Shown: piece after piece, positions 36,531-62,215 of the stretch
How positions within the stretch are numbered: position 1 is the first letter of the stretch
How the letters are laid out: each line of letters begins with the position of its first letter
From: an uncultured Acidobacteriota bacterium
GTDB lineage: Bacteria > Acidobacteriota > Thermoanaerobaculia > UBA5066 > Gp7-AA6
Length of the DNA stretch: 64,000 nt
NCBI GenBank assembly: GCA_963764715.1
Contig: CAVXTP010000001.1
Span: 1 to 64,000 of the forward strand
Direction of reading: 5' to 3'
Position numbers and translations under genes: made by a program
Notes under the pieces: generated by a model
What the model saw: only the letters and a program-made list of their open reading frames with translations
The model's database searches: none
Told to the model about the DNA's origin: nothing

Positions 36531-36839
36531 CTACGCGCCGGAGGCCATCCGCCGCAGCGACTCGAACGAATAGATCCCGTCGTTGTGGCCGTCGGCCCAG
36601 TCGATCTGCAGGGCGTACGAGCCGACCCACCGGTGGGCCGCCGCCTGGATCGACAGGGGCGTGAGCGGCCGGTCCGGCCCGCGGTAGATCTTGCCGAAGA
36701 GGTCGGGCTCCCCCTTGCACATGGCGCACGGGCAGGCGCGGCGGAGCTTCTCGAGCGACAGGTAGTCCTCGCGCCCGTCGTCCCAGACGATGACGAGCTC
36801 CTGGCCTAGGACCTGGACCTGCTTCGGGACCGAGATCAC
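36531..36839 (-). CDS. DUF971 / gamma-butyrobetaine-hydroxylase-like N-terminal domain protein
   Basis: W.DG, LRRACPCAMC, VGSYAL...W.DGH.DGIYS; its GTG overlaps the kinase K1 stop (GTGA). Confidence 0.88.
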   Translation of the reverse strand: MISVPKQVQVLGQELVIVWDDGREDYLSLEKLRRACPCAMCKGEPDLFGKIYRGPDRPLTPLSIQAAAHRWVGSYALQIDWADGHNDGIYSFESLRRMASGA

Positions 36840-39442
36840 CGGATGCCTTCGGCCAGGAAGAGGTCCGAGAGGATGCGGTTGTACGAGTAGACGTACGTCT
36901 TGCCGTCGGGCGTCAGGGCGGGAGGCGACAGGAGGTCAATCCCCGCGGGGTCGAGCGGCACGAGCTCTTTCCAGAGCTCGCGCTTCCCGGTCGAAAGCTC
37001 GACGCGGAACACGCGGCCCGGAATCTTTTGCCGGTCGAAGAGAAACAGCCAGTGGCTGTCCCCCATCCAGCCGACCGGATCCTCTCCCGGCACGAGGCTC
37101 GGGATCGGCTGCGGCTCCCCGCCGGCGAGCGGATAGAGATATCGGCGGCGGTCGGGTCCCTGCACGGACGCGAACTTCCCGTCCGGCGAAATCGACCGAA
37201 GGAAGGCCCGATAGCCGGGAGGACTGATGGAACGCGGTTTGGCATCGGCCGAATCCAGAAGGTAGAGGCGCTCGCCCCGGGTTCCCTCGCTCGCGGTGAT
37301 GAGGATCGTCTGCCCGTTGGGGAACCACTCGGCGGTCTTGACGACGAGCCCCCCGGCGGTGACCGGCCGCGGAGATCCCGCGCCGGTTGGCAGCATCGAG
37401 AGCTTCGGGTCCTTCGAAATGTTCGTGACTCCCAGTACCCATCGGCCGTCCGGCGAGATCGACATCGGGATTCCCTCGCCGAGCCTGACCGGGGGCGATC
37501 CGTCCATGCGCCGCGTGTACGCCGAGTAGCCCGCTCCCCCGCCCTCGCCCGACTCGACGAACGCGAACCACGAGCCGTCGGCGGCGATGTCGCGCACGCC
37601 GGACCAGTCGAGCCACGAGAGATCCTTTTCGCCCCTGTCGCCCGGGGCGTAACCGAGGATGCCCGACCGCAGTGTGTCGTGCGCGACGAGAACGCGCCCG
37701 TCCCGGGCCACGTCGTGGAGAGTCAGGTTGCCGGTCACGCGGGCGAGCACCCGCGTCCGACCCGAGAGGCTCGCGGCGTAGATGCTGCGATTCCCGCCGA
37801 CCTCGGCGGCCGTAAACCACACCTCGCGGCCGCCCGGGGGCCACGCGAGGCCGCCCGCCGTGGAGAACTCGCGCGCCAGCGTCGTCATCTTCCCGGCCCG
37901 GTCGATCACGGCCACCGATCCCCCGTCGTCGCCGATGGAAGGATGGTTGATGAAGGCCACGGAATCGCCGCCCGGCGAAACGCGCAGGTTGGTGATCCAG
38001 CCGTCGGTCTCGTAGAGCGTCTTGCCGATCGGATATTCGACTCGGGTCTTGGATCCGACGGTGCGCACGATCGCGAGCGTCTGGCCGTCGGGAGCCCAGT
38101 CGGCGAACTGGACCTCCTCCTGGATCTCCCGGGGCGTTCCCCCGCCCGTGATCCCGATGCGGGCGAGCGTGCCGGCCCGCTCGAACGGTCCGACGAAGTG
38201 TCGATTCAGGCCGACGGCCATCTCGCCGGACGACGAGATCGACAGGACGTCGGCTCCCACGAGCCCGAACGGCCGGGCCTCGGGGCTCTCCAACCGGCTC
38301 ACGTAGATTTCGACCGGCCTCCCCTCCCAGGCCGCGGAGTAGATGATGGTCTGGCCGTCGGGCGCGAAGCGCGCCGTGAAGATCTCGCCGCGCTGGAAGG
38401 TCAGCTCCCGGAAGGACGGCGGGGTCGTCGCGCCCGCCTTCTTCCCGCCGGCGAACGCGGCGGCGCCGACGATCGCGGCGAGGGCCAGGGCGGCGAGGAT
38501 CCACGGCCAGGCCCGCCGGCCCGATCGGACCGCCGCCGTTGCCGCGGCCGTCTGATCGGTCGACGTCGAGAACGACGCTTCCGAGAGATGGTCGCGCACG
38601 TCCGCGAGATCGCGCGCGAGGTCCTTCGTCGTGCCGAACCGGTCCTCCGGGTCCTTCGCGAGGCAGCGCTCGACGAGCCAGCGCACGGGCGAGGGCACCT
38701 TCGGGTTGAGCTGCCCGAGAGGCGCCGGCTCCTCGCGGATGATCGCCGTCATCGTCTCCGCCGTCGTCGCCCGCTCGAAGGCGCGCTTGCCCGTCGCGAG
38801 CTCGTAGACCATCGATCCGAAGGAGAACTGGTCGGAGCGAAAGTCGACCATCCGTCCGGACGCCTGCTCCGGCGACATGTAGCCGACCGTCCCCATGACC
38901 ATGCCCGGCCGCGTCGGCTCTCCGACCGCCGTCTTCAGGGCCGAGACCTCCTGGTCCTCGGGCGTGATGAGCTTGGCGAGGCCGAAGTCCAGGATCTTCG
39001 CGAACCCGTGCTTGGAGACCATGACGTTCTGCGGCTTCAGGTCGCGATGAACGATTCCGGCGGCGTGGGCCGCGGCGAGCCCGTCGGCGATCTGCACCGA
39101 AATCTCGAGGAGCTTCTTGACCGGCACGGGGCCGGCCGCCGAGAGGTCCTTCAGCGTCCCGCCCTCGACGAGCTCCATCGCGATGTAGACGTTCGACTCG
39201 TGGGTGCCGATGTCGTAGATCGTCAGGATGTTCGGGTGCGAGAGCGCCGAGGCCGCCCGGGCCTCCCGCTCGAAGCGGGACCGGCGCTCCGGGTCCGAGG
39301 CGAGCTCGGGAGGCAGCACCTTGACGGCGACGTCGCGTTTCAAACGCTCGTCGCGCGCGCGGTAGACCTCCCCCATCCCGCCGGCCCCGATGGGCGCGAC
39401 GATTTCGTAGGGTCCGAGCTTCGTTCCGGCGGCGAGGGTCAT
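36836..39442 (-). CDS. Ser/Thr kinase K1: Hanks kinase - TM - TolB/PD40-like beta-propeller
   Basis: [37 protein letters not shown]; TM WPWILAALALAAIVG; repeated (S/A)PDG blade motifs. Confidence 0.93.
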   Translation of the reverse strand: MTLAAGTKLGPYEIVAPIGAGGMGEVYRARDERLKRDVAVKVLPPELASDPERRSRFEREARAASALSHPNILTIYDIGTHESNVYIAMELVEGGTLKDLSAAGPVPVKKLLEISVQIADGLAAAHAAGIVHRDLKPQNVMVSKHGFAKILDFGLAKLITPEDQEVSALKTAVGEPTRPGMVMGTVGYMSPEQASGRMVDFRSDQFSFGSMVYELATGKRAFERATTAETMTAIIREEPAPLGQLNPKVPSPVRWLVERCLAKDPEDRFGTTKDLARDLADVRDHLSEASFSTSTDQTAAATAAVRSGRRAWPWILAALALAAIVGAAAFAGGKKAGATTPPSFRELTFQRGEIFTARFAPDGQTIIYSAAWEGRPVEIYVSRLESPEARPFGLVGADVLSISSSGEMAVGLNRHFVGPFERAGTLARIGITGGGTPREIQEEVQFADWAPDGQTLAIVRTVGSKTRVEYPIGKTLYETDGWITNLRVSPGGDSVAFINHPSIGDDGGSVAVIDRAGKMTTLAREFSTAGGLAWPPGGREVWFTAAEVGGNRSIYAASLSGRTRVLARVTGNLTLHDVARDGRVLVAHDTLRSGILGYAPGDRGEKDLSWLDWSGVRDIAADGSWFAFVESGEGGGAGYSAYTRRMDGSPPVRLGEGIPMSISPDGRWVLGVTNISKDPKLSMLPTGAGSPRPVTAGGLVVKTAEWFPNGQTILITASEGTRGERLYLLDSADAKPRSISPPGYRAFLRSISPDGKFASVQGPDRRRYLYPLAGGEPQPIPSLVPGEDPVGWMGDSHWLFLFDRQKIPGRVFRVELSTGKRELWKELVPLDPAGIDLLSPPALTPDGKTYVYSYNRILSDLFLAEGIR

Positions 39443-39469
39443 GGAGAGCGGGGGGATTCTACCGGAGGC

Positions 39470-42049
39470 CTATTTCAGGCCTTCGACGAGCTGGAGATAG
39501 GACAGAACCCGCAAATAGCTGTACGCGTAGAAGCTGCCGTCGGGAGTGCACACGAAACGGCTGGCGCCCGCGAGGCCCGCGGCGTCGGCGGGCGAAACTT
39601 CCTTCCAGAGGTCGAGCCGGCCCGTGACCGGGTCATACCGCCAGACCTGCATCGGAAGTCGGTTGGCGTCCTGCACGAAGAGGCTCCGCCCGTCCGGCGC
39701 CCAGCGGATGGGGCGATGGTTGGAGGTCAGGCCCGGGAGCGCGGTGGGCTCGCCGCCCCCGACGGCGTAAAGATAGATCCGCTGGTCCGGGCCGCTCACG
39801 ACGACGGACTTTCCGTCGGGCGTCACGGTTCCCCGGAAAAGCGAATAGCCTTCCGGCGAAATGGCGCGCGCTTTCGCTCCCGCGATGTCCCGCACGTACA
39901 GCCGCGTTCCCCGGCCGGCCTCGGACGCGGTAAAGATCAGCGTCTTCCCGTCGGGAAGAAAGTCGGCGTTGAACACGTCGAGCCCGTCGTGCGAAAGAGC
40001 CCGGGGCTCGCCCACGCTCGTGGGAAGCAGGTGAATCTGCGGGGTGGCCGTGTGCGTGATTGCGATCGCCCAAGCGCCGTCGGGCGAGAACGCCTCGGTG
40101 GAGCCGTCGCCGATTCGCACCGCCGGAGTGCCGTCGAAGCCCCGAAGGTATGAGGAGTAGGCGGGACCGCCGCCCTCTCCCGACTCCGTAATGAGGATCT
40201 TGCTCCCGTCGGAGCGAATGTCGGTCACGAGGGAGTAGTCGAGCCACGAAAGCTCCCGCTCCTTGGCATCGCTCGGCCCCCGCGCCAGAATCCCGAGCCG
40301 GGCGCTCTCGTTGGTCATCAACACCCGCCCCTGCTGAGAAATGTCGCGGATCGTGCTGATGCCCGGCACGCGCCCGACCAGGCGCACCTTCCCGGACAGC
40401 GTCACGCCGTGGACGGCCCGGTTGAAGCCGCCCACGGCCGCCGTGTACCAGATCTCGCTGCCGTCCGGCCTCCAGACGAGGCCCTGGGCCGTCGCATAGA
40501 GAGGCGACACGTCCCGCTTCTTCCCGGCCCGATCCACGACGGAGACGACCCCCCCGTCGTCGTTGGGGACCTGATGGTCGAGGAAGGCGACGAGCCCCCC
40601 ATCCGGAGAGATCCGAGGGTGGCTGATCCAGCCCGAGGTTTCGTAGAGCACCTTCCCGATCGGATACTCCACGCGACACTTCGCGCCGACGTCCCGCACG
40701 ATCGCCAGGTCCTTCCCGTCGGGAGACCAGTCCGCGAACTGGACGTCGTCGAGGATGTCGCGCGGAGCGCCCCCGGCGATCGATATCCGGGCGAGCCGGC
40801 CCGTCGTCACGAAAGCTTTCGAGCGACGGGGAGCGAGCTTGATCGCCATCTCGCCGGCCTTCGAGATGGCGAGCACCTCGGCGGGGGGCAGGCCGAAGGG
40901 CCGCGATTCCGGGCTTTCCGGTCGGTTGATGAAGATCTCGAAGGGCGCCCCTTCCCAGGCGGCGGAATAGACGACCGTCTGGCCGTCCGGGGCGAAGAGC
41001 GAGCCCGCGACCTCGCCGCGCGAGAACGTGATCTGGTGAAACTCGGGCGGTTCGACGACGCCGGCCTTCTTGCCGGCGGAGTAGAGGAACGGCGCGGCGA
41101 TGGCCGCGCCGAGGACCGCCGCGAGGATCAGCGCCGGCCAGGGCCGCTTCTTCCCGGCCGACGGCAGGGCGCGCACGCCGGTCGTCGTCCCGGAGACGCC
41201 GGAGAGCGCCTCGAGGTCGAACGCGACGTCGCGCGCCGACTCGAACCGCTCCTCCGGGTTCTTCTCCAGGCAGTGCCGCACGATCCGGTCGAGGCCCGGA
41301 TGCACCTCCTTGTTCGTCGCGGACAGGTCGGGCGGCTCCTTGGTCAGGATCGCCGTGATCGTATCGGCCGCCGTGTCCCCGCGGAATGCGCGCTGGCCCG
41401 AGAGCATCTCGTACAGGATCGTCCCGAACGCGAAGATGTCGGACCGGCGGTCGGCGGCCTTCCCGCGCACCTGCTCGGGCGCCATGTAGCCCATCGTGCC
41501 GAGGACGACGCCGGGCTCGGTGCCGCCCGAGACGGTGTTCATGTCCGTCTGGCCGTGCTCGTCCCGCTCGGTCTTCAGCTTCGCCAGTCCGAAGTCGAGG
41601 ATCTTCACCCGCCCGTCCTTCGTCAGGAAGAGGTTCTCGGGCTTGAGGTCCCGATGCACGATCCCCTTCTCGTGCGCGGCCGCGAGACCCCGCGCCATCT
41701 GGACGGCGTACTCGATGGCCTTCCGCACCGGGAGCGAGCCCGTCAGCAGCCGCGCCCGCAGCGTTTCGCCTTCGAGGAGCTCCGTCACGATGTAGGGCGC
41801 GCCCGCGTGCATTCCGAAGTCGTAGACCGCGGTGATGCCCGGATGGTTCAGCACGCCCGCCGCCCGCGCCTCCTGCTCGAAGCGCTTGAGGCGGTCGGGG
41901 TCCTGCGAGAAGGTCGCGGGCAGCACCTTGATCGCCACGTCGCGCCCCAGCCGCGGATCCTTCGCCCGGTAGACCTCGCCCATGCCGCCCGCGCCGATCG
42001 GCGCGAGGATCTCGTAGGGACCGAGCTTCGATCCGGCGGAAAGCGTCAC
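39470..42049 (-). CDS. Ser/Thr kinase K2: kinase - TM - beta-propeller
   Basis: Same architecture as K1; intact [18 protein letters not shown] motifs. Confidence 0.93.
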   Translation of the reverse strand: MTLSAGSKLGPYEILAPIGAGGMGEVYRAKDPRLGRDVAIKVLPATFSQDPDRLKRFEQEARAAGVLNHPGITAVYDFGMHAGAPYIVTELLEGETLRARLLTGSLPVRKAIEYAVQMARGLAAAHEKGIVHRDLKPENLFLTKDGRVKILDFGLAKLKTERDEHGQTDMNTVSGGTEPGVVLGTMGYMAPEQVRGKAADRRSDIFAFGTILYEMLSGQRAFRGDTAADTITAILTKEPPDLSATNKEVHPGLDRIVRHCLEKNPEERFESARDVAFDLEALSGVSGTTTGVRALPSAGKKRPWPALILAAVLGAAIAAPFLYSAGKKAGVVEPPEFHQITFSRGEVAGSLFAPDGQTVVYSAAWEGAPFEIFINRPESPESRPFGLPPAEVLAISKAGEMAIKLAPRRSKAFVTTGRLARISIAGGAPRDILDDVQFADWSPDGKDLAIVRDVGAKCRVEYPIGKVLYETSGWISHPRISPDGGLVAFLDHQVPNDDGGVVSVVDRAGKKRDVSPLYATAQGLVWRPDGSEIWYTAAVGGFNRAVHGVTLSGKVRLVGRVPGISTIRDISQQGRVLMTNESARLGILARGPSDAKERELSWLDYSLVTDIRSDGSKILITESGEGGGPAYSSYLRGFDGTPAVRIGDGSTEAFSPDGAWAIAITHTATPQIHLLPTSVGEPRALSHDGLDVFNADFLPDGKTLIFTASEAGRGTRLYVRDIAGAKARAISPEGYSLFRGTVTPDGKSVVVSGPDQRIYLYAVGGGEPTALPGLTSNHRPIRWAPDGRSLFVQDANRLPMQVWRYDPVTGRLDLWKEVSPADAAGLAGASRFVCTPDGSFYAYSYLRVLSYLQLVEGLK

Positions 42050-44631
42050 TTCAAGCCCTCGACGAGATACAGGTCCGACAGCGTGCGCTGAAAGCTGTAG
42101 ACGTAACCTGTGCCGTCCGGAGTGATGATGATCGGCGCGATGTCGACGATCCCCGAACCGTCGGCCGGCATGACCTCGCGCACGAAGTCCTTCTTTCCGG
42201 TGCCGAGGTCCAGTCGAAACACGCGCCCGGGCAGATCGCGTCTTCGGAAGACGTAGAGGGATTTGCCGCCGGCTCCCCAGCCTGCAGGCGACTCGTCATC
42301 GGCGAGTCCCGGGACCGGAACGGGCTCGCCACCGGCCATGGGATAGAAGTAGCGCTTCCGGTCGGGCCCGACGACCAGGACCCGGGTGCCGTCCGGCGTG
42401 ACGCCTCGGGAGAACGACCGATACCCCTCCGGCGTCAGCGCCCGCGGTTTGCCGGCTTCGATCGGGATGACCCAGATCCGCGGGCCGTGCCCCGGCTCGT
42501 TCGCCGTGAAAACGATGCTCTTTCCGTCGGGGGTGAACGAGCTTCCGCCCTGGGTCTCGAGATCACCCGTCGCAAGGACCTTTTTCTCGCCGGCCCCCGT
42601 CGGGTAGAGGGTGATGGTGCGTTTCTCCCGACCGACCTGGACCGCGGCCCATTGCCCGTCGGGGGAAAGCGCCTGGCCGCCACCCTCGCCGAGACGGACC
42701 GGGGGCGCGCCATCGGTGCTCCGAACGAAGGTCGAGTACGCCGGACCCGAGCCTTCGCCGGTTTCCGAAAAGAGAATCGTTTTCCCGTCGTCGGAAAGGT
42801 CGAAGAGCGAGGACCAGTCGAGCCACGTGAGCTCCTTCTCCCTGGCCTGGCCTTCCCTCCCCCCGAGGATCCCGATGCGGATCGAGTCGTGCGCGACGAG
42901 GACGCGCCCGTCCCGCGAAACGTCCTGGAGCGTGAGGCTCTGCGTCACCCGGGCGAGCAGGCGTTCGCCGCCGCTCAGCAGAAAGGCGTGAATCGCGCGA
43001 TTGCCCCCCACCTTGGCTCCGGTGACCCAGATCTCCTTCCCGTTCGGCGACCACGCGAGGCCGTATTCCGACGAGAACGCCCCGGCGAGCGACGTCTTTT
43101 TCCCGGCCCGGTCGACGATCGCGACCGACCCTCCGTCGTCGCCGCGCTGCGGATGGTCGAGAAAGGCGACGATTTTGCCGTCGGGAGAAACGCGCGCATG
43201 GCTGATCCAGCCGGCCGTCTGGTAGAGGACCTTCCCCGCGGGAAACTCGAGCTGGTTGCGCAGGTTCACGTCCCGAACGAGCGCCAGATCTTTCCCGCCC
43301 GGCCCCCAGTCCGCCCATTGCACTTCTTTGTGGATCTCGCGGGGAGCGACTCCGCCGCTCACGCCCACCTCGGCGAGCGTGCCGCTCCGGGTGAAGGGCC
43401 CGTCGTTGTGGCGGTCGAGCGAGACCGCCATTTCGCCGGTCTCGGAGATCGCGAGAAGGTCCGCGCCGACGAGGCCGAACACGCGGGACTCGGGGCGGTC
43501 CGTGCGGGTCGAGAAGAGCTCGACCGGCCTTCCGTCCCACGCCGCCGCGTAGACCACGGTCTGGCCGTCGGGCGCGAACCTCGCGGAGTAGACCTCGCCC
43601 CGCCGGAACGTGAGCTGCTGGTAGTTCGGCGGCGGAACGTAACCCGCCTTCTTGCCGTACCGGTATCCGGCCGCGACGCCGGCCGCGAGGGCGAGCAGGG
43701 CGGCGAGAAGCGCCGGCCCGATCCAACGCGAGCGCTTCGCCACGACCGGGGTGAGGACGGCGCCCGTCTGCGAGGAGACGCTCGAAAGGGATTCCAGGTC
43801 GAACGCGACGTCCCGCGCCGACTCGAAACGCTCCTCCGGGTTCTTCTCGAGGCAGTGCCGCACGATCCGGTCGAGGCCGGGATGGATTTCCTTGTTGGTC
43901 TGCGAGAGGTCCGGCGGCTCCTTGGTCAGGATCGCCGTGATCGTGTCCGCCGCCGTGTCCCCGCGGAACGCGCGCTGACCCGACAGCATCTCGTAGAGGA
44001 TCGTTCCGAACGCGAAGATGTCCGACCGCCGGTCGGCCGTCTTGCCCCGCACCTGCTCCGGCGCCATGTAGCCCATCGTCCCCAGCACGACGCCCGGTGT
44101 CGTCCCGCCCGAGACGGTCTGCATGTCGGTCTGGCTGCCGTCGCCCTTCTCGGTCTTCAGCTTCGCGAGGCCGAAGTCGAGAATCTTCACCCGTCCGTCC
44201 TTCGTGAGGAAGACGTTCTCGGGCTTCAGGTCCCGGTGGATGATCCCCTTCTCGTGCGCCGCCGCGAGACCCTTCGCGAGCTGCACGGCATAGTCGACGG
44301 CCTTGCGGACCGGCAGCGAACCGGAGAGAAGGCGCGCCCGGAGCGTCTCGCCCTCGAGAAGCTCGGTCACGATGTACGGCGCATCGTCGTGCGTCCCGAA
44401 ATCGTAGACCGCCGTGATGTTCGGGTGGTTCAGAAGGCCCGCGGCGCGCGCCTCCTGCTCGAAGCGCTTGAGGCGGTCCGGGTCCTGCGAAAACGACGCC
44501 GGGAGCACCTTGATCGCGACGTCGCGCGAAAGGCGCGGGTCCTTCGCCCGGTAGACCTCGCCCATCCCTCCCGCGCCGAGCGGCGAGAGGATCTCGTAGG
44601 GACCGAGCTTGTTTCCGGCGGAGAGCGTCAT
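42046..44631 (-). CDS. Ser/Thr kinase K3: kinase - TM - beta-propeller
   Basis: Same architecture; kinase domain nearly identical to K2. Confidence 0.93.
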
Positions 44632-44657
44632 TAAGGCGGCAGGATTCTAACCGCGAA

Positions 44658-47228: not shown

Positions 47229-49795
47229 TTCAATCCCTCGACGAGGTAGAGATTCGACAGGTTGCGGAAGTAGCTGTAGGCGTAGGCACCGTTCGGCGCA
47301 TTTCGGAACGCGACCAGACCGTTCACGCCGGTCGCGTCGGCCGGAAAGAACTCGCGCCAGAGCTCCTCGCGTCCGGTCTCCGGGTCGAGCGCGTAGATCC
47401 GCATCGGAATCTCGGTCGAGGTCCCCTTGCGCACGAGAAGGCGGCCGTCGGGCGCCCAACCGGCCAGCGATGATGATGCCTCGAATCCGGGAACCGCCTT
47501 CGGTTCTCCGCCGTCGACCGACACGATGAACGCTTCGCCCTTCGGTCCCCTGGCCGCGAAACGCTTTCCGTCCGGGGACACCGTGGCCCCGCTGACGCCC
47601 TCCGCGGTCAGCGGCCGCGGAGCGCCACCCTCGACGTCGAAGACGTACGTCCGCGCGGCGCGTCCCTTCTCGACGGCGACGCCTAGAAAGTGCCGTCCGT
47701 CGGGCAGCCACCGGGCAGCCCGAACCGCGAGGCCCCCGTTCGGCACCTTCTTCGCTTCGCCGGCGCCCGTCGGGTACACGACGAGCTCGGGCGCGTCGGG
47801 CGGGCCCACGAACGCCAGCACGCTCTTCCCGTCGGCGGAAATGGACTGCGCGTTGCCTTCTCCCAGCCGCACCGCCGGCGAACCGTCGATCGCGCGCACG
47901 TAGACCGAATAGCCCTTTCCACCGCCCTCGCCCGCTTCGCTGAACAGGACGGTCCGACCGTCCTGGGAGATGTCCGACATCAGGCTCCAGTCGAGCCAGC
48001 TCAGGTCGACTTCCTTCGCGTCGCCGGCGCCGCGGGCGAGAACCCCGATCTGCGCGGTGTCGTGCGAGATGAGGACCCGGCCGTCCCGCGAGACGTCCTC
48101 GAGCGTCAGCGACCCCGCGACGCGGGCGAGCGTCCGAATCCGGCCCGACAGCGTGGCGGAGCGGAGAACGCGGTTGCTGCCGACCTCCGCCGCCGTGAAC
48201 CAGACTTCCGAGCCCCCGGGCGACCAGGCGAGCCCGCTCGACGACGCGTAGACGGGCGAGATCGTGGTCTTCTTCCCGGCGCGGTCGACCACGGCCACGG
48301 ATCCTCCGTCGTCGTTGACCGCCGGATGATCCAGGAACGCGATCCGGGCGCCGTCGGGCGAGATACGGGGATTGCCGATCCATCCCGCGGTCTCGAACAG
48401 GACCTTTCCGGTCGGGAACTCGAGCCGGCACTTGCGGTTCAGGACCCGCACGATCGCGAGGTCCTTGCCGTCGGGAGACCAGTCGGCGTAGTCCACGTTC
48501 TCGAGGAGCTCGCGCGGCGCGCCGCCGGTCGCGCTCACGCGCGCGAGAGTGCCGGCGCGCGTGAAGGCGGTGTCGAAGTCGGCCTTGAGGATGACGGCGA
48601 CTTCGCCCGAAGCCGACACGGCCGCGACGTCGGCGCCGGGAAGGCCGAACGGCCGCGACTCCGGGCTGTCGGGACGGCTGACGTAGATCTCGGCGGGCTT
48701 GCCGTCCCAGGCCGCCGTCGTCAGGATCGTCTTCCCGTCGGACCCGAAGCGGGCGCCCCAGATGGCGCCCTTGCGGAACGTGAGCTGGTGGAACGTCGGG
48801 GGCTCGGTCGCTCCCTTCCCGTGGCCGAGGAAATAGCCGACCGCCACGGCGGCCGCGAGGGCCGCGGCGCCGAGCGCGTACGGAACGACGCGCATCCGCG
48901 CGGACCGCTCCGGGACGGCCGGAACCGCGGTGGAGCCGGTCGTGCCCGACAGGGCCTCGAGGTCGAACGCCAGGTCGTGCGCCGAGTGGAAGCGCTCCTC
49001 GGGATTCTTTTCGAGGCAGTGCCGCACGACGCGGTCGAGGCCGGGCGCGACGTTCTTGTTGGTCGCCGAGAGGTCCGGCGGATCCTCCCGCAGGATCGCG
49101 GACATCGTCTCGGCCGCGGAGTCGCGATGGAAGGCGCGCGAGCCCGAGATCATCTCGTAGAGGACCGCTCCGAACGAGAAGATGTCCGAGCGCGCGTCCG
49201 CCTTCTTTCCCTTGACCTGCTCGGGCGCCATGTAGCCGAGCGTGCCCAGAACGACGCCGGGTTCGGTGCCGTCGGCGGTCGGCAGGTTCGTCTGCGGGCC
49301 CGCAGCGCCATCGGCCTGCGTGAGCTTGGCGAGCCCGAAGTCGAGGATCTTCACCCGCCCGTCGTTGGTGACGAAGAGGTTCTCAGGCTTCAGGTCCCGG
49401 TGAACGATCCCCTTCTCGTGCGCGGCCGCCAGCCCTCGGGCGACCTGGATCGCGTAATCGGTCGCCTTGCGGACCGGCAGCGCGCCGCCCGAGAGGCGCG
49501 CCCGCAGCGTCTCGCCCTCCAGAAGCTCGGTGACGATGTACGGCGACCCCTCGAACGCGCCGAGCTCGTAGACCGAGGTGATGTTGGGGTGGTTGAGCCC
49601 GCCCGCGGACTGGGCCTCCTGCTCGAACCGGCGCAGCCGCTCCGGGTCCTGCGCGAAGGACGCTGGCAGCACCTTGACCGCGACGTCGCGTTTCAACCGC
49701 TCGTCGCGCGCCCGGTAGACCTCTCCCATCCCGCCGGCGCCGAGCAGGCCGAGGACCTCGTAGGGACCGACCTTCGTACCCGCGGCAAGGCTCAC
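47225..49795 (-). CDS. Ser/Thr kinase K5: kinase - TM - beta-propeller
   Basis: Same architecture; kinase domain nearly identical to K4. Confidence 0.93.
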   Translation of the reverse strand: MSLAAGTKVGPYEVLGLLGAGGMGEVYRARDERLKRDVAVKVLPASFAQDPERLRRFEQEAQSAGGLNHPNITSVYELGAFEGSPYIVTELLEGETLRARLSGGALPVRKATDYAIQVARGLAAAHEKGIVHRDLKPENLFVTNDGRVKILDFGLAKLTQADGAAGPQTNLPTADGTEPGVVLGTLGYMAPEQVKGKKADARSDIFSFGAVLYEMISGSRAFHRDSAAETMSAILREDPPDLSATNKNVAPGLDRVVRHCLEKNPEERFHSAHDLAFDLEALSGTTGSTAVPAVPERSARMRVVPYALGAAALAAAVAVGYFLGHGKGATEPPTFHQLTFRKGAIWGARFGSDGKTILTTAAWDGKPAEIYVSRPDSPESRPFGLPGADVAAVSASGEVAVILKADFDTAFTRAGTLARVSATGGAPRELLENVDYADWSPDGKDLAIVRVLNRKCRLEFPTGKVLFETAGWIGNPRISPDGARIAFLDHPAVNDDGGSVAVVDRAGKKTTISPVYASSSGLAWSPGGSEVWFTAAEVGSNRVLRSATLSGRIRTLARVAGSLTLEDVSRDGRVLISHDTAQIGVLARGAGDAKEVDLSWLDWSLMSDISQDGRTVLFSEAGEGGGKGYSVYVRAIDGSPAVRLGEGNAQSISADGKSVLAFVGPPDAPELVVYPTGAGEAKKVPNGGLAVRAARWLPDGRHFLGVAVEKGRAARTYVFDVEGGAPRPLTAEGVSGATVSPDGKRFAARGPKGEAFIVSVDGGEPKAVPGFEASSSLAGWAPDGRLLVRKGTSTEIPMRIYALDPETGREELWREFFPADATGVNGLVAFRNAPNGAYAYSYFRNLSNLYLVEGLK

Positions 49796-52374
49796 TTCAG
49801 GTCCCTCACGCGGTACAGGGTCGAAAGAATGCGATTGAACCCCGCCGTCATGATCCGCCCGTCGGGGATGACGCGGGCCGGGCCGAACGCCGTCACGCCG
49901 GCGCTGTCGGGACCGACGAGGTCCCGGACGTGCGTTCGGTGGCCGGAGACGATGTCGATCAAGTCGACGCGGCAGGGAATGCCCACAACCGAGACGTAGA
50001 GGCCCTTTCCGTCCGCCGACCAGCCCGCGGGATAGTCGCCAACCTGCGAGGCGGGCAGATCCACGGGCGGTCCGCCGCCGACCGGATAGAGATGGACCTT
50101 CTGGTCGGGGCCGGTCGCCGTGACGAAGCGACCGTCGGGGGACACAAACAGGCGGCTCGGGTTCAGACCTTCCGCGCTGATCGGGGTCGGCTTCCCTCCC
50201 GCAACGGGCTGGGCATACAGCCGCGCTCCATGGCCCGGCGCCGCGGCTTCGAAGAAGAATTTCGACCCGTCCGGAAGGAACGCGCCGTACGTGGGCCTCC
50301 CGAGCCCGTCCGGCGGGAACTCGCGGGGCTGCCCCGCCTTGACCGGAACGAGCACGAAGTGGGACGGCTCGGTGTAGGTCCGCGTCAGGGCCCAGGCGGC
50401 GTCCGGCGAGAGCGCCAGCCCCACCCCGTCGCCGAGTCGCACGGCGGGGGATCCATCCGTTTGCCGCAGGTACACCGACCCGTTGGCGCCTCCGCCCTCG
50501 CCCGATTCGTCGAACAGAAGGAGCTTCCCGTCGCTGGACAAAGCGCGATCGCCCGACCAGTCGAACCAGCCCAGATCGCGGCCCGCCGACTGATCCGGCA
50601 GGAATGCCAGGACTCCGGAGCGATAGTCGTCCTCCGTGACGAGAGCGTTCGTGCCGGCCAGATCGAGCAGGGCCGGTGTTCCTTGCATCGTCCGAAGCAG
50701 GCGCAGCTTGCCCGAAAGCGTAACCGCCCAGATCTCACGCTCGATGCCCTGGCTTGCGGCCGTAAACCAGATCTCGCGTCCTCCCGGCGCCCAGACGAGG
50801 CCCTGGACGGTGGACCATCCCCCGGCGAGGTCGAGCTTCTTCCCCGAACGGTCCACGACGGCGATCGTGCCGTCGTCCCCGAATCCCGGGTGATCGATGA
50901 AGCCGATCTGCGATCCGTCCGGCGAGAAGCGCGGGCCCTGGATCCAGCCGGCCGTTTCGTAGAGCACCTTGCCGATCGGGAATTCGAGGCGCTCCTTTCC
51001 CGACGTTCGCTGGACCACCGCGAGATCCGTCCCTCCCGGCGCCCAATCGGCATACGTCACGTCCTGCAGGATCTCCTTCGGCGCGCCCCCCGAGAGCGGC
51101 GCCCTCGCGAGCGTTCCGGTGTAGGCGAAGCCGGCCGGAGACGGTTTCGAGTCGAGTTGAATCGCAACCTCGCCGCCGGAGGAGATTCCGAGCAGGTTCG
51201 CCGCCGGGAGATTCAGCGCGGAGGATTCCGGATTTCCCGGCCTCAGGGAATAGATGCGAGGAGCGGCGCCTTCCCAGGCGGCACCGTAATAGACGGTCTG
51301 GCCGTCGGGCCCGAACCGGGCCGCGAGGATCGTCCCTCGCTGAAACGTCAGGCGCTGGAAGGTGGGCTGAGCTGCCGGAGCCGCCCGACGGCCGACGAAC
51401 AGGCCGACCGCCGCGCCGAGAAGGATTCCGGCCGCGACGAGCGGGATCGCCCACGACCTCCGGCGCACCGGCTCGGCGACGGCCATCCCTCCGGAGGCCG
51501 ACGTCGTGACCTCCGAAATGTGCTCGCGCACGCTCTTCAAGTCCCTCGCGAGGTCGCGCGTCGACGCATAGCGCTCGTCGGCGTCCTTGGCGAGGCAGCG
51601 TTCCACGATCCATCGGAACGGGGCGGGCGCGCGCGGGTTGACCTGCGCGACCGGCTCCGGTTCGTCCCGGATGATCGCCGTCAGCGTCTCCGCGCCCGTG
51701 TTCTTCTGAAACGCGCGCTTCGAGGTCGCCATCTCGTACAGGATCGAGCCCAGCGCAAACTGGTCGGACCGGAAGTCGACCGGGCGGCCGCTCGCCTGCT
51801 CCGGGGACATGTACCCCACCGTTCCCATCACCGTGCCGGGCTGTGTCTCCTGGGGGATCGCGGTCGGGGCCCCGGACTCCTTGTCGCTCGGCGCGACGAA
51901 GAGCTTCGCGAGACCGAAGTCGAGGATCTTGACGAAGCCGTCCTTCGTGACCATCACGTTTTCGGGTTTCAGGTCGCGGTGGACGATCCCTGCGCCGTGC
52001 GCCTTGGCGAGGCCTTCCGCGATCTGGACGGCGACGTCGAGCAGCTTCTTGCCCGCGAGGGGCCCGGAGGCGAGCAGCTCGCGCAGGCTCGCGCCTTCGA
52101 CCAGCTCCATCGCGAGGTAGGGGGACCCGTCCGAGGATCCGATCTCGTGGATCGTGATGATGTTGGGATGGTTGAGGGCGGACGCAGCTCGCGCCTCCTG
52201 CTCGAAGCGCTTGAGGCGGTCCGGGTCCTGCGAGAACGAGGCCGGCAGGACCTTGATGGCCAGCTCGCGCGAGAGGCGGGGATCCTTCGCGCGATAAACC
52301 TCCCCCATGCCTCCCGCCCCGAGAGGCGCAAGGATCTCGTAGGGTCCGAGCTTTGTTCCGGCGGAGAGGGTCAA
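49792..52374 (-). CDS. Ser/Thr kinase K6: kinase - TM - beta-propeller
   Basis: TTG start; intact motifs; first ~64 aa resemble K3, the rest of the kinase domain resembles K1. Confidence 0.93.
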   Translation of the reverse strand: MTLSAGTKLGPYEILAPLGAGGMGEVYRAKDPRLSRELAIKVLPASFSQDPDRLKRFEQEARAASALNHPNIITIHEIGSSDGSPYLAMELVEGASLRELLASGPLAGKKLLDVAVQIAEGLAKAHGAGIVHRDLKPENVMVTKDGFVKILDFGLAKLFVAPSDKESGAPTAIPQETQPGTVMGTVGYMSPEQASGRPVDFRSDQFALGSILYEMATSKRAFQKNTGAETLTAIIRDEPEPVAQVNPRAPAPFRWIVERCLAKDADERYASTRDLARDLKSVREHISEVTTSASGGMAVAEPVRRRSWAIPLVAAGILLGAAVGLFVGRRAAPAAQPTFQRLTFQRGTILAARFGPDGQTVYYGAAWEGAAPRIYSLRPGNPESSALNLPAANLLGISSGGEVAIQLDSKPSPAGFAYTGTLARAPLSGGAPKEILQDVTYADWAPGGTDLAVVQRTSGKERLEFPIGKVLYETAGWIQGPRFSPDGSQIGFIDHPGFGDDGTIAVVDRSGKKLDLAGGWSTVQGLVWAPGGREIWFTAASQGIEREIWAVTLSGKLRLLRTMQGTPALLDLAGTNALVTEDDYRSGVLAFLPDQSAGRDLGWFDWSGDRALSSDGKLLLFDESGEGGGANGSVYLRQTDGSPAVRLGDGVGLALSPDAAWALTRTYTEPSHFVLVPVKAGQPREFPPDGLGRPTYGAFLPDGSKFFFEAAAPGHGARLYAQPVAGGKPTPISAEGLNPSRLFVSPDGRFVTATGPDQKVHLYPVGGGPPVDLPASQVGDYPAGWSADGKGLYVSVVGIPCRVDLIDIVSGHRTHVRDLVGPDSAGVTAFGPARVIPDGRIMTAGFNRILSTLYRVRDLK

Positions 52375-52406
52375 GTCGGGGCGATTCTACGACGGCCGCG
52401 CTTCGT

Positions 52407-55097
52407 CTAACCGGCGGCAGCAATGAGCTTCTGAAACCGAGGATTCCCGCGCAGCGGATCGAAGTTCGGGTCGATCTTCAGCCAGCCGGGCGAAAGGATG
52501 TAGGGGATCTTTAGAAGGGGCTCGAGCTGGTCGAGCGCTTTGTCGGGCTCCCCCGCCAGGATGTAGATCCGCGCGAGCTGGTGCTGCAGGAATGGGCCGG
52601 TGAACCCGTCCTTCGCGATCGGGAGCATCGCCACGCCCTTCTGCGCCTCGGCGATCCCCTGCGCGGTGTCGCCCGCGTAGGCGAGCGCCAGACCGAGGCC
52701 CACGCGGCGCTGCGCGTCCTCGGGGGAGGACTGCAGCTGCTCCTCGATCGCCTTCCTTGCCGCGTCGGCGTGCGCGCGCGTCTTCGCCGCGTCGCCGCGG
52801 AGGGCCCAGGCCTGCGCGAGGCAGAGGCCCCAGGTGGCGCGATCGCCGTCGAAGGCGCTCGGCGCCAGGCTCACGAGAAGGTCTCGCTGCTTCTCGTCGA
52901 GGAGCCACACGACGTCCCAGTAGGCCGCCACGTAGGCGACGAGCGCCGCGGGTTCGACCTCCCGGGGCGCCGCGGCGAGCACGCTCCTCGCTCCCGCCAG
53001 ATCGGCCTCTCCGAGAAACGTCATGGCCTTGCCTTCGATCAGGCCGAGGTGCGTCGGCGCGATGACGAGCCCCCGGTCGAAGGCCTCCCGCGCCGGGGAA
53101 AAGCGACGAAGCCAGTAGTACGCGTCGCCCAGCCGGCGCAGCACGCTGACCGAGCGGGGGTCGAGCCGTTCCGCCTTCTGCAGCGTCTCGACGGCGGCGT
53201 CCCACCGGCCGAGCGCCACATCGGCCACGGCGATCGCCGAGAGCAGGTCGGCGTTTCCGGGCGAAAGGGCCCGCGCGCGGGCGTACTGCTCGAGGGCCCG
53301 GTCGGAGTCCTTCGTCACGAGCCGTTCGTACTGGCCCATGGCGACGTAACCGTCCGGGCGATTCGGCGCGAGGCGGACGGCCCGCTCGGCGGCCTGCCGC
53401 GCGGCCTCGGCGAGCGCGGGCGTCGGCCCGCTGTTGCCGTAGAGCATGGAGTTCGCCCTCGAAACCCTCGCCCAGGCCTGCGCAAACCCGGCATCGAGCG
53501 CCACGGCCCGCTCGTAGAAGGAGAGGGCCTGGCGCAGGCTCGGCGGGTCCTGGACACCCATGCTCCGGGAGACCTGCTCGCCCCGGAGAAACTCGTCGTA
53601 CGCGGCGAGGTCCTTCGTGGGCCTTTCGTTCAACTGCTGCTGCTCGCGCGGCTGGAGCACGACGCCGAGCTCCTGCGCCACGCGCGAGGCGATGTCCGAC
53701 TGCACCTGGAACACGTTGGTCAGGGCGGCGTCGAAGGGCTGCTGCCACTTGGACGCCGGCGCCTCCGAGCCCGCCACTTCGACGAGCTCCGTCGAGACGT
53801 GCACCCGACTCTCCGCCGCGGCCTTGTCCCAGCGCACCGTCGCGGTCAGGAGGTATCGCACGCCGAGCTCCCGGGCGATCTCCTGAGGCGTCTTCGTCGT
53901 CTTGCGGTAGGGAGTCGAGCTGCCGCGCGCGATCACCTGCAGCCCCGGCAGGAGCGTCAGCTTGCCGCGGACCTCGTCGGCGATCCCGTCGGCGAAGTAC
54001 TCGTCCTCGGGCGCGCCGAGATTTTCGAACGGCAGCACGGCGAGTCGGGTCGGGGCGGCCGGAGCCGCCGCGGTGGTCTTCGCCGGCCGTTGCGGCCTCA
54101 GCAGGAGGAAGAGGCCGACGGCGGCGGCGAGCCCGATCCCGCCCCAGAGGGCGAGCCGGCCGACCGGTCTCCGGCGCCTCCGGGGCGGAGGAGGCTCGGG
54201 CGCAACGGGCCGGGGGCCGCTTCCCGCCACCGCGGCCGCCGCGGAGAGCGAGGCCTCCGAGAGCGCGAAGACGACGTCCTTGGCCGACTGAAAACGGTGG
54301 TTCGGGTTTTTCTCCAGACAGTGGCGCACGACGTGGTCGAGAGCCGGCGCGATCCCGCGACCGGACTCGGCCGGATCGGGCGGTTCGTCGCGCAGGATCG
54401 CCGTCATGGTCTCGATCGCAGAGGTCCGCCGGAAGGCCCGCTGGCCCGACAGCATCTCGTAGAGGATCGCTCCGAACGAAAAGATGTCCGAGCGGTGATC
54501 GGTTTTCGCGGCGCGCACCTGCTCCGGTGACATGTAGCCGGCCGTGCCGAGCACGACGCCGGGTTCGGTCAGGCCCGGGTCGGTGAGCGCCGGCGACGCC
54601 GAGCCCGCGGGGTCGCCGCCGACGCGCTTGGCGAGCCCGAAGTCGAGGATCTTCAAATGCCCTGCGTTGGTCACGAAAATGTTCTCGGGCTTCAGGTCCC
54701 GGTGGACGACCCCCTTCTCGTGCGCCGCGGAGAGCCCACGCGCGATCTGGAGCGCGTAGTCGACGGCCGCCGCCTCGGTGAGAGGGCCCGCCTCGAGGCG
54801 TCCGCGCAGCGTGTCGCCCTCGAGCAGCTCGGTGACGGCGTACGCGACGCCCTGCGCGCTTCCGAACTCGTGGATCGCAAGGATGTTCGGATGCGACAGG
54901 GCCGCGACGGCCTTGGCCTCGCGCTCGAACCGCGCATACGCGTCCTGGTCCAGCGCGAGGTTCCCGGGCAGCACCTTGATCGCCACCTCGCGATCGAGCG
55001 TCGTGTCGCGGGCGCGGTAGACCTCCCCCATGCCTCCGGCTCCGAGGGGCGCAAGCACCTCGTAGTGGCCGAGGAGGCTGCCCTCGGAGAGTGGCAT
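52407..55097 (-). CDS. Ser/Thr kinase K7: kinase - TM - TolB-N-like domain - TPR repeats
   Basis: Start MPLSEGSLLGHYEV; LAVLPFENLG...EYFADGIA; TPR helices; IDPNFDPLRGNPRFQ tail. Confidence 0.92.
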   Translation of the reverse strand: MPLSEGSLLGHYEVLAPLGAGGMGEVYRARDTTLDREVAIKVLPGNLALDQDAYARFEREAKAVAALSHPNILAIHEFGSAQGVAYAVTELLEGDTLRGRLEAGPLTEAAAVDYALQIARGLSAAHEKGVVHRDLKPENIFVTNAGHLKILDFGLAKRVGGDPAGSASPALTDPGLTEPGVVLGTAGYMSPEQVRAAKTDHRSDIFSFGAILYEMLSGQRAFRRTSAIETMTAILRDEPPDPAESGRGIAPALDHVVRHCLEKNPNHRFQSAKDVVFALSEASLSAAAAVAGSGPRPVAPEPPPPRRRRRPVGRLALWGGIGLAAAVGLFLLLRPQRPAKTTAAAPAAPTRLAVLPFENLGAPEDEYFADGIADEVRGKLTLLPGLQVIARGSSTPYRKTTKTPQEIARELGVRYLLTATVRWDKAAAESRVHVSTELVEVAGSEAPASKWQQPFDAALTNVFQVQSDIASRVAQELGVVLQPREQQQLNERPTKDLAAYDEFLRGEQVSRSMGVQDPPSLRQALSFYERAVALDAGFAQAWARVSRANSMLYGNSGPTPALAEAARQAAERAVRLAPNRPDGYVAMGQYERLVTKDSDRALEQYARARALSPGNADLLSAIAVADVALGRWDAAVETLQKAERLDPRSVSVLRRLGDAYYWLRRFSPAREAFDRGLVIAPTHLGLIEGKAMTFLGEADLAGARSVLAAAPREVEPAALVAYVAAYWDVVWLLDEKQRDLLVSLAPSAFDGDRATWGLCLAQAWALRGDAAKTRAHADAARKAIEEQLQSSPEDAQRRVGLGLALAYAGDTAQGIAEAQKGVAMLPIAKDGFTGPFLQHQLARIYILAGEPDKALDQLEPLLKIPYILSPGWLKIDPNFDPLRGNPRFQKLIAAAG

Positions 55098-55167
55098 CGG
55101 GCGTTGTCCGGATTCTACCCGCAGTCGTGGAATATCCTTGCCGCGCTTACTCAATCGAAAGGCCGTC

Positions 55168-57478: not shown

Positions 57479-58312
57479 TCAGCCCCGCATCGCCAGAAGC
57501 CGCCGGATCCGCTCTTCGAGCGGCGGGTGGGTCGAGAAGAGCGCCATGAGGCCTCCGCCCGTCAGCGGATTGACGATGCAGAGGTGGGCGTTCGTCGGCG
57601 TCGCGCCCTCGAGCGGAATGCGGCCGGACGCGGCGCCGAGCTTCTCGAGCGCGCTCGCGAGCGGGCGCGGGTCTCCCATGAGCGTCGCTCCCGAGGCGTC
57701 GGCGCCGTACTCGCGGCTCCGGCTGACGGCGAACTGGATGAGCATCGCGGCGATCGGGGCGAGGATCACGAAGAGCAGGGCGAGCGGGTTCCCGCCGCCG
57801 CGGCGGTCGTCGCCGCTCCTCGGCGTCATGTAGGCGAACCGCGTCAGGAACGTCAGCGCGCCGGCGAGCGTCGCGGCGATCGACGACGTCAGGATGTCGC
57901 GGTTCAGGACGTGGGAGATCTCGTGGGCGAGAACCCCCTCGAGCTCGGCCTCGTTCATCGCCTGGAGGATGCCCTCCGTCGCGGCGACCGCGGCGTGCTG
58001 CGGGTTGCGCCCGGTCGCGAAGGCGTTCAAGGCCGGGCTCGGGACGACGTAGAGCCGCGGCATCGGGATGCCGGCCTTGCTCGCCAGGCGCTGGACGATC
58101 GCGTGGAGCTTCGGCGACTCGGCCTCGGTGACGGGCTGCGCCCGGTAGGCGGCGAGCGCGAGCTTGTCGCTGAAGAAGTACGAGACGAAGTTCATCACCG
58201 CCGAGAAGGCCAGGGCGAGGAGCATCCCCTGCTCGCCTCCGAGGGCGTACCCCGCGAGCAGGAAGAGTCCCGTGAGGAGCCCCAGCAGGAGCGTGGTCTT
58301 CATCATGTTCAT
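57479..58312 (-). CDS. htpX: Zinc metalloprotease HtpX
   Basis: NAFATGRNP, GVLAHEISH, SRSREYGAD, FSTHPP..ERI. Confidence 0.94.
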   Translation of the reverse strand: MNMMKTTLLLGLLTGLFLLAGYALGGEQGMLLALAFSAVMNFVSYFFSDKLALAAYRAQPVTEAESPKLHAIVQRLASKAGIPMPRLYVVPSPALNAFATGRNPQHAAVAATEGILQAMNEAELEGVLAHEISHVLNRDILTSSIAATLAGALTFLTRFAYMTPRSGDDRRGGGNPLALLFVILAPIAAMLIQFAVSRSREYGADASGATLMGDPRPLASALEKLGAASGRIPLEGATPTNAHLCIVNPLTGGGLMALFSTHPPLEERIRRLLAMRG

Positions 58313-58361
58313 CGCCGCACCTCCGCCGTGGTGTCGACGATATCGCTGTAACGGCGGGACG

Positions 58362-59641
58362 CTACTCGTAACGGAGCGCTTCGATCGGATCGAGCCGCGA
58401 CGCCTTCACCGCCGGGTACAGGCCGAAGAAGATCCCGACCGACAGCGAGACGACGAGCCCGAGGACGACGGACCACAACGGCGTCTCGGCCGGCAGGGCG
58501 TCGAAGGCCGCCTTGATCGCGGCGGGCACCGCGACGCCGACGGCGACGCCGATGATGCCGCCGAGGACCGAAAGGGTCGTGGCCTCCGTCAGGAACTGCA
58601 GCACGATGTCCCGGCGAAAGGCGCCGACGGCCTTGCGCACGCCGATCTCCCGCGTCCGCTCGGTCACCGAGACGAGCATGATGTTCATCACGCCCACGCC
58701 GCCGATCACGAGCGACACGAACGCGATGAAGATCATGGCCAGGGTGATGCCCTGGGTGATCCCGCGGAAGCTCTCGATCATCTTGTCCGGCGTGACGATC
58801 CCGAAGTCGTTCGGCTGGTCGAACCGGACGTGGCGCCGGGTCCGCAGGACCTGCTGGACCTTGTCGATGAGGGCGGGGACCTGGTCGGGCCGGTGCGGCA
58901 CCATGGCGATCCGGAGCGCGTCGCCGTCGAGGCCGCCGACCTTGATCCAGGGGAAGCGCCGGTCGAAGGTCGTCAGCGGGATCGTGACGAAGTTGTCCTG
59001 CGACTCGCCGAACATCTTCCCCTTCTTCTCGAAGACCCCGATCACCGTGTAGGCGTCGTGGCCGAGCGTGATCCGCTTCTGCAGGGGGTCCTCGCCGGGG
59101 AAAGAGCTTCTCCGCGATCTCCGCTCCGAGCACGATGACGTCGGCCGCGTGCTCCACGTCGAGCTCGTTCAGGAACCGTCCCTGCGACACGAAGCGGCTC
59201 AGGGCGACGGCGTAGGGCTCCATCACGCCGAAGACCCTCGGCGACTGGACCTCGTTGTCGCGGTACTTCAGGTGGAAGTTCGAGTTGTCCCAGAGGTAGC
59301 GCTGCGGCGAGACGGCCCGCGCCTCCGGCACCTGCTTCCCGGATCGCTTCGGCGTCGGCGAGGGTCAGGTCCTTCCTCCGCAGCTCCCCTTCCGGGCGCG
59401 GCCCGCCGGGCCCGAAGCGCGGCTCGTACTTCTGGACCATGACGAGGCTCGCGCCGAAGCTCTGGAAGTTGCGGACCATGTTGTTGTTGAAACCGGTGAC
59501 GATCGAGACCATCGCGATGACCGTCGCCACGCCGACGACGATCCCGAGAACCGTCAACCCGGCGCGCAGCTTGTGCAGGCGCACGGCGAGCATCGCGAAC
59601 CGCAGGTTCTCCCCGAACCCGCGCCTCAGGTGCTGGAACAC
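58362..59641 (-). CDS. MacB/FtsX-family ABC permease with two apparent frameshifts
   Basis: Paralog of 59702-60979; one extra base near 59337 and one in a C-run near 59098 join the three frames; C-terminal VTERTREIG...LDPIEALRYE. Confidence 0.85.
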
Positions 59642-62213: not shown

Positions 62214-62215
62214 CG

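Follow-up and report, generated by a model that had tools for sequence, protein, structure and literature searches.

A seven-gene array of receptor-like Ser/Thr kinases and the separate histories of their kinase and sensor halves in an uncultured Acidobacteriota bacterium

PknD of Mycobacterium tuberculosis consists of a kinase, one transmembrane (TM) segment and a beta-propeller; dimerisation-driven activation has been shown for it and its ligand is not known, according to the accessible part of a review (PMC3601408). An expansion of kinases has been reported for Planctomycetota and Myxobacteria, including Ser/Thr kinase (STK)-TM-WD40/TPR proteins whose repeats are predicted to be periplasmic; adjacent kinase duplicates were noted in myxobacteria, duplication and recombination were invoked, and Acidobacteria are not mentioned in the accessible part of that text (PMC11032199). 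In Deinococcus radiodurans, the C-terminal propeller of RqkA is needed for stimulation of the kinase by pyrroloquinoline quinone (PQQ), as given in the accessible part of the preprint (bioRxiv 10.1101/2020.04.06.028845). Here, we describe seven receptor-like Ser/Thr kinase genes (K1 to K7) lying in a row on contig C1 of an uncultured Acidobacteriota genome (G000), within a window of 64,000 nucleotides (nt), that is, the whole stretch of DNA studied. Their kinase halves recombine and their sensor types are old, and we consider it rather probable that they belong to a shuffled repertoire of single-pass, PknD-like receptor Ser/Thr kinases, in which many sensors lead into few kinase outputs.

Then, how does this array compare with the described systems? 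The order kinase-single TM-propeller is that of PknD, and each half of the sensor domain modelled here is six-bladed. However, in place of the single six-bladed NHL sensor of PknD there are two predicted propellers (526 amino acids (aa), of which the PknD sensor structure 1rwi spans 228 residues) with crossing strands, which are of the PD40 and not of the NHL type; in addition, many paralogues stand in a row and the host is Gram-negative. The kinases of Planctomycetota and Myxobacteria carry repeat arrays of variable length, whereas the domain here appears to have a fixed set of 12 blades, and the accessible text describes no gene arrays that keep to one site while their kinases are exchanged, as is seen here (PMC11032199). 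RqkA has a single eight-bladed propeller on a linker, is encoded by a single gene and has a role in DNA damage, as far as the accessible text of the preprint goes. CadC/ToxR-type transmembrane one-component regulators are related in another way, since the sensor of K7 is predicted to share the CadC fold and the double propeller also occurs behind winged helix-turn-helix (wHTH)-TM heads, but their output is a DNA-binding domain and here it is a kinase. For Ca. Solibacter usitatus, Ser/Thr kinase paralogues have been studied and positive selection was not found, and the accessible text describes no domain architecture, gene array or exchange (PMC3174227). The accessible main text of the bacterial STK (bSTK) atlas preprint lacks the terms WD40, PD40, propeller and TolB and any word beginning with Acidobact, although its supplements may list such kinases, and the accessible part of a survey that finds transmembrane regulators enriched in Acidobacteriae does not mention a double-propeller sensor (PMC10269533). 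No published description of these kinase arrays was found in the literature searched, with subscription journals outside its coverage, and an earlier note on this DNA had likewise recognised no characterised system. A conserved signalling half, a variable sensor half, tandem clustering and exchange are also features of plant receptor-like kinase (RLK) clusters and bacterial chemoreceptor families. This is an analogy only, since the sensors are not homologous and arms-race selection is not seen here.

The array and its sensor domains

As the earlier note had claimed, seven co-oriented kinase genes with nothing between them occupy 36836-55097 of the minus strand. All of them are intact, and they meet in overlaps of 4 nt or gaps of 26-32 nt:

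36836..39442, minus strand: K1, 868 aa; kinase of subtype A, TM segment, predicted double propeller (36839-38416)
39470..42049, minus strand: K2, 859 aa; kinase of subtype C, TM segment, predicted double propeller (39473-41044)
42046..44631, minus strand: K3, 861 aa; kinase of subtype C, 90% identical to that of K2, TM segment, predicted double propeller (42049-43626, modelled, pLDDT 93.8)
44658..47228, minus strand: K4, 856 aa; kinase of subtype B, TM segment, predicted double propeller (44661-46229)
47225..49795, minus strand: K5, 856 aa; kinase of subtype B, 88% identical to that of K4, TM segment, predicted double propeller (47228-48796)
49792..52374, minus strand: K6, 860 aa; chimeric kinase of subtype A, TM segment, predicted double propeller of a separate lineage (49795-51363)
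52407..55097, minus strand: K7, 896 aa; kinase, TM segment, alpha/beta and TPR sensor (52410-54080) with the predicted fold of the CadC periplasmic domain

All seven proteins match Pfam PF00069 (Pkinase) with 163-176 bits (cut-off 31.7), and the Gly loop, AxK, HRDLKPxN, DFG and xPE motifs are complete in 7/7, just as had been claimed. Each protein contains one hydrophobic 19-mer (Kyte-Doolittle (KD) 1.78-2.41), with no second above 1.6; Pfam also identifies PD40 in K1-K6 and TPRs in K7. The six kinase-TM-propeller paralogs of ~860 aa of the earlier note are thus present, but the FxxLTFxRG start attributed to all their propellers is exact only in K1, K4 and K6, with conservative changes in K2, K3 and K5, and the domain counted from this motif measures 523-526 aa and not ~540. 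As judged from these sequences, the proteins are very probably active receptor kinases. The closest solved kinase structure is PknB (E 8e-55). The model NF033483 (PknB/Stk1 PASTA kinase) reaches 290-311 bits, below its threshold of 450, with the match limited to the kinase part, and no PASTA domain was matched by Pfam in the array proteins. TolB identity was ruled out by TIGR02800 scores of 28-65 bits (cut-off 343) and by neighbours that are not tol-pal genes.

Structure prediction of the outer domains, which the earlier note had proposed, gave a high-confidence fold for K3 and a model of K7, with a predicted local distance difference test (pLDDT) score of 93.8 for K3 (predicted template modelling (TM) score, pTM, 0.90) and of 88.0 for K7 (alignment of 7 rows). 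The strand pattern of K3 suggests a pair of six-bladed propellers that are connected through two long strands crossing from one to the other; judging from the secondary structure, the top faces of the propellers would surround a shared cleft. In the structural search the best matches of the K3 domain each span one propeller. For example, the PknD sensor (1rwi) matches one half with Z 20.7 over 228 aligned residues (root-mean-square deviation (rmsd) 2.8, 13% identity), and no solved structure matches the whole double propeller above a TM-score of 0.35. The homodimer prediction for the distal propeller of K3 scored 0.00, which speaks neither for nor against a dimer. In the model of K7, the sensor has the fold of the CadC periplasmic domain, with an alpha/beta subdomain and then TPR helices behind one TM segment. 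The CadC structures (3ly7-3lya) match both subdomains with Z 18.1-18.2 over 304-306 residues (rmsd 4.3-4.4, 13-14% identity); TPR-only matches tie with CadC in Z but span only ~105 residues. K7 is without the N-terminal winged-helix output of the CadC type and has a kinase in its place.

Exchange of kinase halves between genes

The two halves of these genes give different trees (136 intact genes, one frame-extended gene being dropped). The propeller tree contains about a dozen old types that are common to several genomes, and the kinase tree contains three subtypes (A, B and C) that are partly sorted by genome. One type of propeller may be joined to different kinases: the K6 type occurs five times on subtype A and three times on subtype C, the K4 type ten times on subtype B and eight times on subtype C, and two further types likewise occur on different subtypes. 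The approximately unbiased (AU) test, based on 37 selected rows, rejects monophyly of the K6-type and K4-type sets on the kinase data (p-AU 9e-5 and 2e-60, respectively). For 14 of 127 genes the nearest kinase is found in the same genome, against 3.0 expected, while this holds for the nearest propeller of 1/127 only. Synonymous distances (dS) also differ between the halves, being 0.38 for the kinase and 0.16 for the propeller between K4 and locus L003, and 0.38 and 0.92, respectively, between K1 and locus L002. The kinases of K2 and K3 are about as distant from each other (dS 0.53) as K3 is from its orthologue in L001 (0.55).

Unit gains and losses in close relatives end within kinase-coding DNA. 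L003, L023 and L013 lack K6, and there the match continues 61-94 codons into it; in L001 and L003, an extra propeller comes after a K2/K3-like kinase. K6 itself is a chimera, with the following segment:

52195..52374, minus strand: K2/K3-type start of K6, ~60 codons long

This segment is 90-93% identical to K3 at the amino acid level, vs 41-76% in later kinase windows, and contains a 44-nt stretch identical to K3. Recombination thus takes place within the kinase halves, which the earlier note had overlooked together with the internal promoter-like sites given below. That note had proposed a tandem expansion, to be refuted if the paralogs grouped with dispersed kinases. A tree of 63 kinase domains from this genome shows this for K1 and K6 and for K7, which groups with dispersed TPR kinases; K2-K5 group with another array, on contig C23, and a single clade of the K1-K6 kinases is rejected (p-AU 1.4e-11). 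Tandem expansion therefore fails for the kinases and survives only for the propellers of K1-K5, which look like a local radiation (with weak support in one of two trees), the K6 propeller being a separate lineage. Simple local tandem duplication is not the history of the array. The sensor types are old, common to several species and under purifying selection, with a domain-wide ratio of nonsynonymous to synonymous substitution (dN/dS) of 0.09-0.25 for the propeller in 15/15 orthologue pairs.

Inspection of the junctions revealed promoter-like sites. Wherever a kinase gene does not overlap the gene upstream, which is the case for K7, K6, K3 and K1, the hexamer TAGAAT stands 9-14 nt ahead of its start:

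39456..39461, minus strand: TAGAAT, -10-like, 13 nt before the K1 start
44644..44649, minus strand: TAGAAT, -10-like, 12 nt before the K3 start
52384..52389, minus strand: TAGAAT, -10-like, 9 nt before the K6 start
55112..55117, minus strand: TAGAAT, -10-like, 14 nt before the K7 start

The window contains 8 such sites against 2.8 expected, and 137 of the 212 sites in the genome have a gene start within 40 nt, with a peak at 6-9 nt. A TAGAAT-type hexamer precedes 47 of 132 family starts scored, 36 are confirmed overlaps and 49 have neither; on the coding strand, no promoter was detected in a strict scan for sigma-70 sites. We take TAGAAT for a putative -10 element of housekeeping promoters that leave the transcript a short leader or none; such promoters have reportedly been described for other phyla. 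The spacing from TAGAAT to the start also makes short-leader or leaderless transcription look common in this lineage. Because TAGAAT precedes all four non-overlapping starts, the array probably comprises four short units and not one operon. Across 37 junctions, the DNA around TAGAAT goes with the upstream gene, at an identity of 0.56, and shows no link to the propeller that its own gene encodes (0.42, equal to the baseline of 0.42); therefore, the crossovers lie downstream of the start, inside the kinase. In L004, L012 and L017, related G+C-rich palindromic spacers, which by eye resemble repetitive extragenic palindromic (REP) elements, replace the short junction upstream of kinase starts.

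The ~870-bp kinase-coding segments very probably serve as the repeats of the array, so that homologous recombination inside them deletes or inserts whole units. It also re-pairs a sensor with another kinase subtype and keeps neighbouring kinases alike, and the promoter-like junction and the kinase start stay with the upstream gene. Some points speak against this account: the AU-test groups were chosen after the first trees had been seen, the junction signal partly includes the upstream stop-codon region, and homogenisation is slow and partial, the four-fold-site identity of paralogous kinases being 0.57 within and 0.54 between genomes. Kinase exchange is slow, and not a fast switch.

Insertion site and occurrence in the lineage

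The closest relatives are from Acidobacteriota, and from Thermoanaerobaculia or group 7 wherever the class is named. A survey of synteny and copy number in relatives, as the earlier note had suggested, revealed 0 to at least 7 kinases at one site. Between the MacB genes and a DUF971 gene there are seven kinases here, five in G209, four in G238, five in G215, one in G218 and at least seven in G222, and the same site is empty in G212, G234, G230, G148 and G207. In G226, no MacB-kinase-DUF971 arrangement was found. The flanking genes in the window are as follows:

36531..36839, minus strand: DUF971/GBBH-like_N gene that overlaps the stop codon of K1 and flanks the insertion site downstream
55138..57375, plus strand: DPP IV-like S9 peptidase, divergent from K7
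57479..63481, minus strand: HlyD adaptor, MacB-type permeases and HtpX; upstream flank

Since MacB directly adjoins DUF971 in the five genomes with an empty site, DUF971 is a flank and was ruled out as a dedicated partner; in more distant families, it follows other genes. The S9 peptidase, which in 12 of the 66 related loci has kinases on both sides, is probably a passenger. Two tandem S9 peptidase genes lie beside the array at L007:1453-4607 and L025:2854-7400. A third MacB-type permease at 58309-59641 is split over two frames, possibly by an assembly error, as relatives have one 428-aa frame. On the other side of the array, at 30183-34087, recR and dnaX are followed by GTPase and roadblock genes of the mglA/mglB type, an order kept in many relatives, and a tRNA-Ser(GGA) is located at 35504-35592 (minus strand). 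A second copy of the 54-bp stretch over its 5' end (35556-35609) is found at 35696-35748, and L013 and L007 have more copies.

The G000 genome encodes 70 kinase domains in 4.36 Mb, and for 38 of them another kinase is no more than 6 kb away, while random placement gives a mean of 12 and a maximum of 26 (500 draws). Kinase clustering in this genome exceeds chance. Besides the seven genes described here, there are arrays of 15 kinases on contig C21 (180767-229378, L067-L069; 13 with PD40 and 2 with TPR) and of 6 kinase domains on contig C23 (23835-40290, L070-L071). They carry mostly other PD40 propeller types, with near-identical kinase halves on different sensors. Recent duplicates of other kinase classes were also seen, namely the near-identical kinase domains at C22:37508-40678 and C6:8851-12027 and an adjacent near-identical pair at C17:28914-34394. 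Among the 66 related loci, which were picked by similarity to K3 and cut 10 kb on either side, 55 have at least two kinases and 34 reach the DUF971 gene. The array is thus not a rarity, and kinase arrays are the normal state of this lineage. The propeller family (3135 representatives at 50% identity, E<=1e-30) is present in at least 51 of the 201 genomes of Acidobacteriota that were sampled, a tally with 7 candidates scored per genome and with one unpublished genome (G023) included, and five relatives scored in full have 5-20 matches each. A 3.2-kb contig titled Bifidobacteriaceae (L055), probably mis-binned, carries a kinase 69% identical to K3.

Proposed signalling and its alternatives

Each gene would encode a cytoplasmic PknB-like kinase and an exported sensor, which is a putative 12-blade double propeller in K1-K6 and a CadC-like TPR module in K7. 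By analogy with PknD and PknB, a ligand may bind in the cleft between the two propellers and bring two kinases together, which would be activated by autophosphorylation. The signal would then pass to proteins encoded elsewhere, with wHTH-FHA regulators as the best candidates, and many sensors would feed about three kinase outputs. It was correctly noted earlier that the array holds no phosphatase or FHA protein: G000 has 9 FHA and 2 PP2C matches, none of them on contig C1. At L141:3989-7351 (contig C9 of G000), a wHTH-FHA regulator gene immediately precedes the gene of another double-propeller kinase of this family; the kinase gene is broken by frameshifts in the assembly. None of the 86 genes neighbouring homologues at 21 of 26 loci turned out to be a recurrent partner. 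A peptide-sensing link via peptidases found no support, with 2 of 21 peptidase paralogue matches (seeds excluded) within 8 kb of kinases and a background of 9.7%.

The proposed partners and ligands also meet contrary evidence. No FHA match (E<=1e-12) was found among the 86 neighbours in other genomes, so the case for FHA depends on a single locus, and FHA-wHTH proteins as the main output are a tentative and somewhat doubtful proposal. On the ligand faces, which were deduced from secondary structure, type-specific residues are not enriched (23/184 vs 15/160, p 0.39), and the top face is rich in residues invariant across nine types, a pattern equally compatible with different ligands, with a single ligand class common to the types and with simple packing. 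Since no partner recurs and neither peptidases nor type-specific residues are enriched, the identity and even the diversity of the ligands remain inferred. Whether each propeller type has a different ligand is, in our judgement, evenly balanced, and, as a guess, the most likely ligands are common molecules from outside the cytoplasm, namely peptides or envelope fragments.

Could the array be explained otherwise? An assembly artefact or recent exact duplication is practically negligible, although other family members split by frameshifts in G000 mean that the assembly has errors. Pairwise identity within the array is 53-90% for kinase halves and 43-54% for propellers, and the longest exact DNA match between any two array genes is 44 nt; the propeller identity and this short match exclude collapse or duplication in assembly. 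The site and elements of gene order recur in other genomes, and independent genomes with arrays at the same site dispose of the artefact that the earlier note had raised as a way to refute it. A different possibility is that the TM segment does no more than anchor the protein at the inner face of the membrane and that the ligands of the propeller or TPR module are cytoplasmic. The membrane arrangement was studied in the best 150 of the 3135 homologues, 110 of which have kinase heads and the rest wHTH-TM, TIR-TM or TM-less wHTH/SARP heads, with many fragments. TM-less forms thus exist, fused to wHTH, SARP/BTAD or kinase heads (P0018, P0025, P0086, P0095, P0099, P0038, P0013, L005:4891-7431 and L019:4776-7268), and are probable cytoplasmic sensors that would be easier for ligand work. 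However, seven of the TM-less propellers contain 4-7 Cys each, vs a mean of 1.3 in 116 TM-linked ones (143 complete propellers, 20 set aside as truncated or ambiguous). These seven represent three independent lineages with mostly unshared Cys positions, and the contrast supports export of the TM-linked propellers. Net charge is higher on the kinase side of the TM segment in 161 of 239 proteins and equal in 55, and the K7 module folds, in its model, like a solved periplasmic domain. Less favourable to export are a fourth TM-less lineage, inside such arrays (L005 and L019), with only 1-2 Cys, the lack of an even-number bias in the Cys counts of TM-linked propellers, and an Ala/Gly-rich TM helix with basic residues at both ends (2.2 K/R outside vs 3.3 inside). 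A composition classifier for export was set aside, since the all-beta fold confounds it. Taken together, export of the sensor is probable and purely cytoplasmic sensing improbable, in support of the diversified receptor-type kinases with probably periplasmic sensors of the earlier note.

Two further readings concern the use of the copies. They could form a redundant birth-and-death cluster, in which modules for one ligand class or for dimerisation multiply by unequal crossing-over and differ little in function. The invariant residues on the putative top face, where type-specific positions are not enriched, the range from 0 to at least 7 kinases at the site and the absence of single members in close relatives agree with this. 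But types only ~50% identical are each kept across genera with the low dN/dS given above, which pure redundancy would not maintain, and all seven genes are intact; we regard redundancy as unlikely. The array could also be an immune-receptor cluster like plant RLK/NLR loci, which would sense molecules of phages or competitors and trigger defence, close to the plant-RLK and phage-stress reading of the earlier note. Its tandem layout, presence/absence variation and domain swapping resemble such loci, and one homologue (P0032) is a fusion of TIR domain, TM segment and double propeller. However, the whole sensor is conserved between species under purifying selection, with no sign of positive selection in the domain-wide dN/dS of the 15 pairs, the site lies among housekeeping genes (dnaX, recR, MacB), no effector recurs among the 86 neighbours, and PADLOC 2.0, a library of described systems only, matched 0 of 7 non-kinase proteins or parts (E<=1e-5). 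An immune role is therefore very improbable, and this part of the earlier note is not supported.

We return to the shuffled repertoire of PknD-like receptor kinases. A bolder form of it, for which the chances seem rather slim, is a combinatorial receptor network rewired by recombination, with kinase halves kept alike enough to dimerise and cross-activate across paralogues. Different double-propeller sensors would then stand in for one another as receptor and co-receptor, and a crossover within the kinase would place a sensor under a different promoter and connect it to a different output subtype. The array is common in its lineage and built from known parts, its sensor-fold arrangement is undescribed and its shuffling is well supported. 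The surprise is limited, because the kinase-TM-propeller/TPR architecture, kinase expansion and adjacent duplicates are already known in other phyla. Acidobacteriota are abundant in soil and their signalling has barely been studied. How specificity is kept among ~70 Hanks kinases with 2 PP2C-type phosphatase and 9 FHA matches in one genome is a question that such arrays raise, and as the array is a natural series of sensor-kinase chimeras, specificity and sensor binding can be addressed directly. If real, the combinatorial network would be the Ser/Thr-kinase counterpart of the chemoreceptor families, and the double-propeller module may read a ligand class for kinases, CadC-like regulators and TIR proteins across Acidobacteriota.

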